The position numbers and the translations under genes are program-made. The notes under the pieces were generated by a model, which was not told the origin of the DNA, made no database searches, and worked only from the letters and a program-made list of their open reading frames with translations. Shown piece by piece: positions 21,155-24,371 of a DNA stretch of 39,260 bases; position 1 is the stretch's first letter; every line of letters starts with the position of its first letter. Source of the DNA: Theionarchaea archaeon. Lineage in GTDB: Archaea > Methanobacteriota_B > Thermococci > Methanofastidiosales > SZ-28-30. The stretch is taken from positions 1 through 39,260 of the forward strand of contig JACVGT010000042.1 in NCBI GenBank assembly GCA_018992685.1. The letters are read 5' to 3'.

Positions 21155-22360
21155 ATGTCATACCAGGCCAAGTATGATGAAGGAGGCCGACGCGAAGCAG
21201 ACCGCGTCGACACAGAAAGCTATTTGCAAAACCTCCAGAGACGAATAAAGAGTCTGGAACTGCAGAAACGTAATACGGAAACCGAATTGGTCCGGCTGCA
21301 GCGAGAGAACAGAGAATTGCGAAAAGAGTTGGATCGTCTTCGGTCTCCTCCTTTGATTACTGCGGTAGTGGAGGATGTTCTGGTAGACGGGAGGGCTGTG
21401 GTAAAAAGTTCCTCCGGCCCCAATTACGTGGTTAATGTCTCTCATTTTGTCAATACTAACGACATCGTTGTGGGCAGCAGGGTGGCTATGAATCAGAGAA
21501 CACTCTCTATTCTCGAAGTGCTGCCGTTCTCAAGGGATCAGGCGGTTTCCAGCATGGAGATTGTGAGAAAGCCTGCTGTGGCCTACAAGGACATCGGAGG
21601 ACTGGATGTGCAGATTGCAGAGATCAAAGAGACTGTTGAATTACCTCTAAAGCATCCTGAGCTCTTCGAACGAGTGGGGATTGAGCCTCCATCGGGTGTC
21701 CTGCTGTATGGTCCTCCGGGAAATGGAAAGACGCAACTGGCCAAAGCAGTTGCCAGTGAAACTGAATCAACCTTTGTCAAAGTCGTGGGTTCTGAATTCG
21801 TTCGCAAATTCATCGGTGAGGGTGCTCGCATTGTCAGGGAAGTCTTCCAGCTTGCCAGAGAAAAGGGTCCCAGCATAATCTTTATTGATGAGATTGACGC
21901 TATTGGATCCCGGAGAATTGATTCAGAAGTGTCTGGAGACAGGGAAGTCCATCGAACGATGATGCAGTTGCTTTCAGAAATGGACGGGTTTGATCCTTCT
22001 GGAAACGTCAAGATACTGGCTGCCACCAACAGGCCAGACATTCTGGACCCTGCCCTATTGCGTCCAGGAAGGTTTGACAGGTTGATTGAGGTCCCCCTTC
22101 CCGATAAGAAGGGCCGCTTAAATATTTTGAAGATACACACCTGCAACATGAATCTCAAGAGTGTGGAACTGGAAGATGTCGCAGAACGATCAGAAAATGC
22201 ATCTGGAGCAGACCTCAAAGCGATCTGTACTGAGTCAGGAATGTTTGCAATTCGAGAAGGCAGGGACTACATCGAAGAGGCCGACTTTTTCAGTGCTTGC
22301 GACAAAGTATTAGGGTCATACGAGGAGAAAGATTCAGAATCAGGGCTTATCTATGGATAA
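21155..22360 (+). CDS. pan: Proteasome-activating nucleotidase
   Basis: Coiled coil + OB domain, [42 protein letters not shown]-terminal HbYX (IYG). Confidence 0.96.
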
Positions 22361-22492: not shown

Positions 22493-22770
22493 AAAGTATT
22501 GATTAAGAATACTATCGTCAACCGCTACAGCAATTAACGAACTAAAGAGAGATCCTATCCTCTGTTCAGGAATGTTCGTTCCAGCTCTCGGACTTTACAT
22601 ATGTAAAACATTTGTTTTCATCAGAGGATATCGGAAAACTAGCCGTTATCATTTACAAATGTAAACCGAGCGAAGAATTGCTATTTCATGGCCCGAAATA
22701 GGAAGGTGCCCGATTCCGGGTACATGAACAATGCGAAAACCTTATATTTGACATGATGCAAGAGGTGCCA

Positions 22771-22826
22771 GATGATGATACCGACAGCGTCTGACCCTAC
22801 GGGATGATGACAGATGGGCGGTCTGA
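22771..22826 (+). ncRNA. Box C/D 2'-O-methylation guide sRNA
   Basis: C ATGATGA 22772-78, 12-nt guide, D' CTGA 22791-94, CCC-TAC-GGG hairpin, C' ATGATGA 22804-10, 12-nt guide, D CTGA 22823-26; TATA at about 22742. Confidence 0.92.
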
Positions 22827-22845
22827 TACAACCAGGTGAATGAAT

Positions 22846-23835
22846 ATGAAATTTGGTATTGAGTTTAGTCCTGAAAAACCTACGTACGAAGTGGCGTATT
22901 ACTCTCGAGATGCAGAAGATGCAGGATTTCACCACGTATGGATAACTGACCACTATAACAACAGGAATGTGTACAGCACTATGACAGACATTGCCTACCA
23001 TACTAACAAGGTATTGATTGGATCTGCAGTCACCAATCCGTATGTGTCCAGCCCTGTGTGGACAGCCAGCGCCATATTCACCATCGATGAAATCTCCGGA
23101 GGGAGAGCAATCTTTGGCATAGGGGCTGGGGACAAAATGACTCTCAATGCTATTGGGATAAAGTGGGAGAGACCTCTAGCTGCTGTAAAAGAAGCTGTGG
23201 AAATCTTCCGGGAATTGAATGAGACAAAAAAGTGCACGTATAACGGAAGTTTCTTCAACATTCCCAATGCCAGAATCAAGAAGAAGCCCTCTCACAGAAT
23301 TCCTGTGTATATTGGAGCTCAGGGTCCAAAGATGCTCCAGATGTCAGCTGCCATGGCAGATGGGGTCTTGGTGAATGCATCCCATCCCAGAGACTTCGAG
23401 CCTGCAGTCAGGGCGTTGAAAGAAGGGGCTGAAGAAGGAGGAAGGAATCTCTCAGAGCTTGATGTAGCAGCGTATACCAGCTTTTCAATAGATGAAAAAC
23501 GGGATAAAGCAATAAAGAAAGCCAGAATTGTGGCAGGTGCAATTGCTGTGGGTTCTCCTGACTTTGTACTGGAACGGCACGGTATCGAACCGGAGACAAG
23601 AGATGCAATAAAGGAAATGGTCGCTGGCCAGGATTTCAAAGCCATGAAAGAAGGCGGGGTTCCCGATCATGTGGTAGAGGCATTTAGCATTGCAGGAACA
23701 CCCGAAGACTGCGTGGAAAAAATAAATGCACTTGGGAAGGCCGGGGTAACCCAGATTGTCACCGGAATGCCTCTGGGCAAGTCAAAAACAGATGCTATAA
23801 AACTGATTAAAAAAGAGGTAATTCCTCACTTTTGA
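22846..23835 (+). CDS. mer: F420-dependent methylene-H4MPT reductase (Mer)
   Basis: [65 protein letters not shown]. Start set by the AGGTGA RBS. Confidence 0.9.
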
Positions 23836-23837
23836 AC

Positions 23838-24371
23838 ATGGAATGCTTTACCTGTAAGATCACAACTGCTGTAGACAAGTCGTATCCAGTCCGCGAAGCT
23901 GTATTCGGGGAGAGTTCTGGACGGTGCCGGTGGCATGCGTGGGATAATGATGCCGTGTTCGTCTGCAGTGTATGCCGAAAGCCGAAATTTTCTGAACAGG
24001 TTGCCTGGTGCAGGAAAAAGGATGTACTCATTTGTACCGAATGCGGTCCCTCACAAACGGTAGAGAATCAGTTCTGGTTCTGGAAGAAGTACACCCTTAT
24101 CAGCTGTCCCCACTGTGGAGAACGCCACCCCACACTCAACCGTCAGGAATTCTTGGGTGAACACCCCTGGCAGGCCAACCCATTTCGCTGCCCCCAATTC
24201 CCTATCTGGTATCCAGGTGGCCGATTACTTGAGAAGAAGAATCTAGCCCAGAGAAAGCCGGGGATACGTTGCCCTCACTGTAATGCTCGTCTTTCAATTT
24301 CAGACCCTGGCACATACCAGTGTCCGTACTGTCACCAGACGTTCCAAGTACGAAAAAAATCTCACCGATAG
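23838..24371 (+). CDS. Cys-rich multi-zinc-finger protein
   Basis: CFTC, CRWH, CSVC, CTEC, CPHCGERH, CPHC, CPYC; directly downstream of mer. Confidence 0.78.
   Translation: MECFTCKITTAVDKSYPVREAVFGESSGRCRWHAWDNDAVFVCSVCRKPKFSEQVAWCRKKDVLICTECGPSQTVENQFWFWKKYTLISCPHCGERHPTLNRQEFLGEHPWQANPFRCPQFPIWYPGGRLLEKKNLAQRKPGIRCPHCNARLSISDPGTYQCPYCHQTFQVRKKSHR

Follow-up and report, generated by a model that had tools for sequence, protein, structure and literature searches.

In this study, a stretch of 39,260 nucleotides (nt) from a Theionarchaea archaeon (GenBank assembly GCA_018992685.1, contig JACVGT010000042.1, positions 1 to 39,260 of the forward strand; hereafter the window) was analyzed. The segment 22772–22826 (+) is likely a dual-guide archaeal box C/D small RNA (sRNA) that forms the leader of mer, the gene for 5,10-methylenetetrahydromethanopterin reductase, and that directs methylation of C1402 in 16S ribosomal RNA (rRNA) and of U2504 in 23S rRNA (E. 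coli numbering). This reading draws on the boxes and their spacing, their conservation, the complementarity and co-variation of guides and targets, the protein machinery of the genome and the geometry of the promoter, from which we infer the transcription start site, the co-transcription with mer, the excision of the sRNA and the two methylations.

Box architecture and genome-wide rarity

Direct reading of the sequence revealed four boxes and two guides, each guide exactly 12 nt long. They are the C box AUGAUGA (22772–22778), the D′ guide UACCGACAGCGU (22779–22790), the D′ box CUGA (22791–22794), a 9-nt spacer CCCUACGGG (22795–22803), the C′ box AUGAUGA (22804–22810), the D guide CAGAUGGGCGGU (22811–22822) and the D box CUGA (22823–22826), all on the plus strand. 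At the sequence level, an archaeal box C/D sRNA is defined by an RUGAUGA-type C box near its 5′ end, a CUGA box closing it on the 3′ side, D′ and C′ boxes in between and guides of about 12 nt, and all of these are present here. A previous sequence-only reading of the window had described the same canonical boxes with two 12-nt guides and classified the element as a box C/D sRNA; the same parts were found on re-reading, and the class assignment was supported by the boxes, by their rarity in the genome and by their conservation across the order.

Both strands of the 3,026,495-base assembly were searched with a strict four-box pattern (RUGAUGA, 11–13 nt, CUGA, 2–12 nt, [AGU]UGAUGA, 11–13 nt, CUGA), which matched only once, at 22772–22826, and had no match in any of the five first-order Markov genomes simulated at this size. 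With relaxed boxes this site was still the only match in the genome, and a still looser scan returned 14 candidates vs. 3 in the genome read backwards. Canonical C/D RNAs seem to be very few in this genome. One of the 14, a second fully canonical candidate, lies on another contig of the assembly (C21:29639–29690, minus strand; AUGAUGA, 10 nt, CUGA, 8 nt, AUGAUGA, 12 nt, CUGA), and its best rRNA matches comprise just 8 pairs.

In the Rfam comparison, nothing reached the gathering score at the sRNA site. At the E-value threshold, 11 matches were found in 22600–23000, all to box C/D families and all on 22767–22841 (+), with sR2 at the top (26 bits vs. a gathering score of 42, E-value 7e-4). As all scores remained under gathering, the sRNA was not assigned to any existing Rfam family.

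Conservation across the order

A 201-nt query was searched in 40 related genomes, and 28 of them gave matches, distributed over families f1 (2 of 3), f2 (4 of 6), f3 (17 of 17) and f4 (5 of 7), with none among the seven genomes of the sister family f5. Outside the genus of the window, most matches were limited to query positions 72–127 or 72–128, that is, to the sRNA alone. The window's own assembly is denoted G000 here, and G001 and G002 are congeneric; the 56-nt sRNA of G001 is identical to that of the window. When the window's own copy was included, CGACAGCGUCUGA and AGAUGGGCGG were unchanged in 28 of 29 loci, and the core of the D′ guide, CGACAGCGU, and that of the D guide, AGAUGGGCGG, were each invariant in 28 loci. 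In an alignment of the 18 distinct sequences of the family, the guide cores and nearly all box columns were invariant, among them the D′, C′ and D boxes in full, while the flanks, the spacer and the outermost unpaired guide ends varied. The sole exception among the boxes was position 5 of the C box, which is G in the Methanofastidiosum-type genus of family f3 (AUGAGGA), the other six C-box positions being invariant. The same sRNA was also present in public records of Candidatus Methanofastidiosum, Methanofastidiosia and "Thermococci archaeon", and its combination with mer in a Theionarchaea archaeon record.

The flanks of the sRNA in the other families pair as a terminal stem with compensatory changes. 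In this stem, 69.4% of the cells were paired, compared with 55.2% in shuffles, and the covariation score was 0.414 vs. 0.206 in shuffles and 0.192 in the best slid control; neither value was reached in any of 500 shuffles, and the figures are supportive and not to be read as probabilities, because the sequences are related. The spacer measures 3–4 nt in those families. In the genus of the window, the 9-nt spacer possibly forms a 3-bp internal stem in place of the terminal one, as the variants CCUUACGGG, CCUUGCGGG, CUUCACAGG and CUUCCCAGG keep the pairs 1–9, 2–8 and 3–7 (C–G, U–G, U–A). Two 8-nt variants, CACUACGG and CAGUAUGG, showed no clear fit to such a stem.

A wider search of a one-genome-per-species collection with the pattern C′ box, D guide and D box gave 73 loci, 69 archaeal and 4 bacterial by title. 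The archaeal ones include DPANN groups, Thermoplasmata, Thaumarchaeota and Brockarchaeota, and the remaining boxes were absent from the four bacterial ones. With a regular expression, the full four-box architecture was found in 62 of 74 pattern matches. The same D guide was joined to different D′ guides in different lineages. A genome of the sister genus within the same family (G003) carries the two guides on two separate sRNAs, L154 (contig C123) and L177 (contig C23), each together with another guide, which is an example of guide re-pairing. A homologue in Thermococcaceae was also considered and rejected: the D-guide pattern occurred in 9 and the D′-guide pattern in 19 of 97 genomes, eight inspected places had no boxes, and control patterns read backwards matched as well, so that these matches were treated as chance, with other guide forms being possible there.

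The D guide and 16S C1402

The guides were compared with the 16S and 23S rRNAs of G001, which belongs to the same genus and carries the identical sRNA, and of two further relatives, G004 and G005. The D guide forms 10 pairs, one of them G–U, with the 16S sequence ACCGCCCGUC, and the N+5 rule places the predicted methylation at C1343 of G001, C1346 of G004 and C1344 of G005. In the annotated E. coli 16S rRNA, the decamer ACCGCCCGTC begins at 1398, hence the D-guide target corresponds to C1402. The sequence-only reading had predicted precisely this, namely that the D guide pairs through one G–U with the universal 16S sequence and that N+5 falls on C1402, and the prediction was verified on the 16S rRNA of the same genus and on that of E. 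coli; the complement on which it depended is present in the 16S rRNAs of all three relatives. In every copy of the D guide, a U stands opposite 16S G1405 and makes the G–U pair, and none has C at this position (38 of 133 genomes of the class matched). The equivalent 18S cytidine is guided by snR70 in yeast and by SNORD43 in human.

Targets outside rRNA were evaluated as well. Transfer RNA (tRNA) targets were rejected, as the best runs among the 35 tRNAs of the genome covered 8–9 positions with several G–U pairs. No exact complement of either guide was found elsewhere in the genome, and complements with one mismatch numbered two for the D′ target and five for the D target, few enough to be chance.

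The D′ guide and co-variation at 23S position 2503

Ten contiguous Watson–Crick pairs are formed by the D′ guide with the 23S sequence CGCUGUCGGU in G001, G004 and G005, and N+5 lies at U2559, U2572 and U2581, respectively. At both guides, the N+5 position itself is a Watson–Crick pair. The homologous E. coli stretch is CGAUGUCGGC. The annotated E. coli 23S copy measures 2906 nt, and three landmarks in it lie 2 nt above their textbook numbers, which we take to be G2447, G2502 and A2602; with this offset of 2 nt, the D′ target is U2504. Previously, the D′ guide had been regarded as unassignable and as only an imperfect match to the canonical 23S 2501–2510 region. The imperfect match is explained by the lineage's 23S rRNA having C rather than A at 2503 and U at 2510, while the guide did prove assignable, to U2504, once the 23S rRNA of the lineage itself was used.

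Position 2503 of 23S rRNA is C in G001, G004, G005, the relative G041 and all five genomes of the sister family (Thermococcaceae-type), whereas E. coli and three Undinarchaeales-type genomes have A there. A2503 of bacteria is where m2A is formed and where Cfr methylates. The loci compared at this position were L035–L037, L113 and L121–L125, with C in all nine genomes of the class and the relative G041 examined. A related D′ guide, ACCGACAUCGAU, is found in five Undinarchaeales-type loci (L051, L081, L089, L092 and L106) and has U where the guide of the window has G; it fits the canonical 23S sequence in a register shifted by 1 nt, so that its N+5 points to A2503, not to U2504. The D′ guide and its 23S target thus co-vary between lineages at position 2503, guide G going with 23S C and guide U with 23S A.

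Promoter geometry and linkage to mer

Upstream of the sRNA lies a B recognition element (BRE)/TATA promoter element, GCGAAAACCTTATATT (22733–22748, +; composed of GCGAAAACC and TTATATT), which is conserved in G000, G001 and G002 while its flanks diverge. Downstream, the segment 22827–22845 (+) comprises the linker, the ribosome-binding site (RBS) GGUGA (22835–22839) and the spacer to the start of mer (22846–23835, +; TIGR03555, 433 bits vs. a cut-off of 348.7), and it contains neither a T-run nor a TATA-like element. Alignment with G001 and G002 showed that the conserved mer start is ATG 22846 (MKFGIEF) and not ATG 22840 of the list of open reading frames (ORFs). The earlier placement of the sRNA between a TATA element and the mer RBS therefore held, given the conserved TATA upstream and GGUGA downstream, and the distance of 7 nt stated for the RBS is right when counted to AGGUGA and wrong when counted to GGUGA, which begins 8 nt from the end of the D box.

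The combination of sRNA and mer was compared in 12 loci, 8 of them distinct, from three genomes and nine metagenome contigs of the window's genus. In all 12, the distance from the end of TATATT to the C box is exactly 23 nt. CAG or UAG is conserved directly upstream of the C box, and apart from a single change at the unpaired 5′ end of the D guide, neither boxes nor guides vary. Between the D box and GGUG, all 12 loci have a linker of 3–8 nt; another 4–6 nt then lead to the ATG, and a T-run or TATA-like element between the sRNA and mer was found in none of them. In the window itself, the mer ATG follows the D box after 19 nt on the same strand, and no promoter element other than the one upstream of the sRNA is conserved.

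The fixed 23-nt spacing suggests a transcription start about 2 nt upstream of the C box. The predicted start lies in the conserved YAG at 22769–22771 (+), probably at A22770, as judged from the CAG/UAG motif and from the usual archaeal distance between TATA element and start. Since the promoter spacing is fixed, the linker is 3–8 nt and neither a T-run nor another promoter intervenes, the sRNA and mer are very likely co-transcribed, as the sequence-only reading had inferred. Four of six metatranscriptome runs were inspected, and two of these gave contigs, all within or adjoining mer; such contigs cannot show RNA ends, and the parts that they leave uncovered are no evidence either way.

The link to mer is confined to the genus of the window. 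A search of 34 genomes of the order found mer in 4, each a member of family f1. The mer gene of G003 is preceded by a separate TATA, placed about 20 nt before GGUGAU, and has no sRNA at that place.

Protein machinery and proposed mechanism

The proteins that a C/D sRNA needs are encoded in the window's genome. Fibrillarin (PF01269, 272.9 bits) and Nop5 (PF01798, 168.2 bits) are adjacent genes on contig C19, and L7Ae (PF01248, 103.5 bits) lies on contig C1.

Based on these features, the following course is proposed. Transcription from the BRE/TATA element at 22733–22748 would begin about 2 nt before the C box and run through the sRNA into mer, and the sRNA would therefore make up almost the whole mer 5′ leader. 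L7Ae would bind the kink motifs C/D and C′/D′ on the nascent RNA, with Nop5 and fibrillarin joining next, and the 3–8 nt linker would then be cleaved or trimmed so that the protected core of 55–57 nt separates from the mRNA. In a published model, the bound proteins shield the body of the sRNA, the flanks left exposed are trimmed away, and this needs no particular signal in the flanks (PMC7994747, in its accessible part). The resulting small ribonucleoprotein (sRNP) would 2′-O-methylate C1402 at the decoding site of 16S rRNA via the D guide and U2504 in the peptidyl-transferase center of 23S rRNA via the D′ guide. What is left of the mer mRNA would still carry its RBS on a short leader, which would resemble the sRNA-less mer leader of the sister genus (G003).

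Weighing of the evidence and alternative explanations

Several observations weigh against this explanation. The window's own assembly contains no 16S or 23S rRNA genes, which is why the targets were checked on the rRNAs of relatives. When 3000 random genomic 12-mers were compared with the G001 rRNAs, 185 of them (about 6%) equaled or surpassed the match of the D guide and 59 (about 2%) that of the D′ guide. Each guide match alone is thus only moderately unlikely, and the weight comes from the conservation, the co-variation and the nature of the sites. The D guide also has an 11-pair run on 23S rRNA near position 616, with four G–U pairs including one at N+5. The terminal stem of the other families is absent from the genus of the window in the sequence alignment, and the leader (22768–22875) folded no better than shuffled sequences (z 0.25; 118 of 200 shuffles at least as good). 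One copy, the remaining one of the 29 loci (L029, G031:C9 ~1509–1551), lacks the D box together with the 3′ part of the D guide, through either a real deletion or an assembly error. The nearest RNA contig (22823–23086, depth 3.8) covers 4 nt on the sRNA side and does not bridge the junction. Moreover, according to the accessible part of PMC7994747, expression of a reporter fell strongly when a C/D sRNA overlapped its 5′ end, so the arrangement may carry a cost and not be neutral.

Among the alternatives, a regulatory leader fared best, although we regard it as rather unlikely; it is compatible with the guide role. Here L7Ae or the sRNP, sitting 3–8 nt upstream of the RBS, would block the 30S subunit on unprocessed transcripts, and mer translation would depend on sRNP assembly, on free L7Ae levels or on excision. 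The D box lies 3–8 nt from GGUG in all 12 loci, and a bound kink-turn (k-turn) protein would therefore abut the RBS; the arrangement is kept in eight distinct sequence variants. Further, L7Ae represses translation via k-turns in 5′ untranslated regions in Sulfolobus and in a reporter system (PMC5539422, as far as accessible), and the reporter result cited above points in the same direction. However, the linker varies in length (3–8 nt) and in sequence, which speaks against a precise operator geometry, and the predicted fold shows no special structure that would sequester the RBS. A structural switch in the leader was not proposed, given the folding z of 0.25 relative to shuffles. The same sRNA also works in quite different contexts in other families, so that its place beside mer could be an accident of gene order that was tolerated. 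That mer translation is coupled to L7Ae or to sRNP assembly, as the sequence-only reading had suggested, appears plausible in view of the Sulfolobus precedent. A further step, that sRNP assembly at the 5′ end of the transcript decides between the fates of guide and translatable mer mRNA, or stabilizes the mRNA, and that the guide is thereby fixed as a leader, is a tentative suggestion that we hold to be improbable on balance; if true, the output of a central enzyme of the C1 pathway would be tied to the capacity for ribosome biogenesis.

Less probable still is a guide without methylation, in which the RNA would act mainly as a folding chaperone on 16S and/or 23S rRNA, or one of its guides would target a tRNA or mRNA, leaving C1402 or U2504 unmethylated. 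Guides that act only as chaperones, with their pairing conserved, are known from Pyrobaculum, and the targets of the present guides lie on different rRNAs, while many dual guides hit close sites in one rRNA (both from the accessible part of PMC6009581). The invariable U opposite G1405, never C, could be taken in the same sense. On the other side, both N+5 positions are Watson–Crick paired and both guides are 12 nt long, and the tRNA search (no pairing better than 8–9 positions) and the absence of another exact complement from the genome speak against other targets.

That the sRNA is made and terminated alone and mer is transcribed from a separate promoter is very improbable. The T-run after the sRNA in the Methanofastidiosum-type genus and the mer promoter of G003 speak for it, but the 19-nt gap from D box to ATG has no T-run, the 3′ half of the sRNA, which is G+C-rich, neither contains a TATA-like element nor is followed by one, and the only conserved promoter element is upstream of the sRNA. 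A chance motif or a decaying relic without RNA function can practically be dismissed: the Rfam scores under gathering and the truncated copy in G031 would agree with it, while the invariance of boxes and guides across the order beside variable flanks, the lack of matches in simulated genomes and the compensatory changes in the terminal stem of other families do not.

Relation to known systems

The preferred explanation, a dual guide transcribed as the mer leader, shares much with known archaeal dual-guide C/D sRNAs (Rfam families sR2, sR18, sR12 and snoPyro_CD), namely four boxes, 12-nt guides, the N+5 rule, a length of about 55 nt, rRNA targets in functional centers and dependence on L7Ae, Nop5 and fibrillarin. 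It differs from the Rfam C/D families in the guides themselves, in directing one guide to 16S and the other to 23S rRNA and, in the window's genus, in the possible stem within the 9-nt internal spacer that replaces the terminal stem.

Among bacteria, E. coli RluC makes pseudouridine 2504. The bacterial modifications fall on the same universally conserved nucleotides of the decoding site and the peptidyl-transferase center that are predicted as targets here, whereas bacteria use stand-alone enzymes and the present modifications would be RNA-guided, with a 2′-O-methyl group instead of pseudouridine at 2504. At 1402, m4Cm is made in E. coli by RsmH and RsmI (PMC11551388, accessible part). In the accessible literature, N. 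equitans and I. hospitalis are reported to carry a modification "at, or adjacent to, C1402", and an sRNA for A1408 is described. The literature found on the two positions also includes an article on m4,2C918 and, for U2504, one on RlmM. An archaeal C/D guide named for C1402 or U2504 was not found in the accessible literature, where the supplementary tables of PMC4644070 and PMC6009581 may list equivalents; Dennis et al. (2015; PMC4644070) mention neither 1402 nor 2504 in their main text, as far as accessible.

That archaeal C/D sRNA genes abut or overlap protein genes and are made from longer transcripts is reported by Tripp et al. (2017, as cited in PMC7994747) and Lui et al. (2018; PMC6009581), and the accessible parts of these articles also describe sRNA genes that lie no more than 25 nt from an ORF, C boxes that contain a stop codon and positions that change between relatives. 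In its placement, the sRNA of the window agrees with this class, as it lies less than 25 nt upstream of a same-strand ORF and is parted from it by neither a terminator nor a second promoter, and the stop codon of the proteasome-activating nucleotidase gene inside the C box of the Methanofastidiosum-type genus (see below) is like the described 3′ overlaps. Unlike the overlapping sRNAs in these accounts, it does not overlap the ORF, and its promoter-to-C-box spacing is fixed at 23 nt (12 of 12 loci). Since the ORF is not overlapped, both guides keep their rRNA targets; among 17 Pyrobaculum guides that overlap a gene at its 5′ end, only 2 had targets (PMC6009581, accessible part). A kink-turn motif in an mRNA leader near the RBS is shared with the L7Ae-repressed mRNAs of Daume et al. 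(2017; PMC5539422), but the operators in the accessible part of that article are single k-turns, while the mer leader of the window holds a complete guide RNA.

The general phenomena are therefore already described, and the current understanding is extended, not overturned; what differs from the described cases is a whole dual guide in a leader without ORF overlap, with the strictly fixed promoter spacing. The sRNA adds a well-supported family of methylation guides to an uncultured archaeal order without RNA annotation, and two of the most conserved nucleotides of the ribosome, 16S C1402 and 23S U2504, are predicted to be ribose-methylated by one RNA. Position 2503 of 23S rRNA offers a clean natural case of guide–target co-variation, in which the class has C and the guide follows. 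Finally, a functional-looking dual guide as the leader of a metabolic gene makes a convenient system for studying how archaea separate sRNA from mRNA.

Neighboring genes and minor sequence features

Upstream of the sRNA lies PAN, encoding the proteasome-activating nucleotidase (21155–22360; TIGR01242, 581.5 bits), with T-runs after its stop codon, and further upstream, on the opposite strand, aMBF1. The order aMBF1, PAN, sRNA is retained in the Methanofastidiosum-type genus, where the sRNA (L005, L016, L025 and L028, ~1499–1550) overlaps the 3′ end of PAN, with the PAN TGA inside the C box AUGAGGA and with a T-run after the D box. In family f4, the sRNA stands about 150 nt upstream of an ORF that we take, by motifs in its translation, to be aspartokinase, and in family f2 it stands upstream of a small ORF, presumably a zinc ribbon, and of one presumed to be aspartate carbamoyltransferase-like, both again read from motifs in the translation.

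Downstream, an ORF of 179 amino acids with several CxxC pairs (23832–24371, +) overlaps the mer stop codon and is probably co-transcribed with mer; it shows 84% identity in G001 and 68% in G002, and no NCBIfam family matched it. Two copies of a 14-nt palindrome, TTTACAWATGTAAA (22594–22607 and 22652–22665), are placed 58 nt apart and about 80–150 nt upstream of the TATA element, with similar palindromes at aligned places in G001, and they look like putative regulator binding sites for the promoter of sRNA and mer. The promoter segment is further flanked by an 11-nt direct repeat, AGGTGCCCGAT (22704–22714) and AGGTGCCAGAT (22763–22773), which ends at the 5′ edge of the sRNA and may be a trace of the rearrangement that made the junction, or chance.

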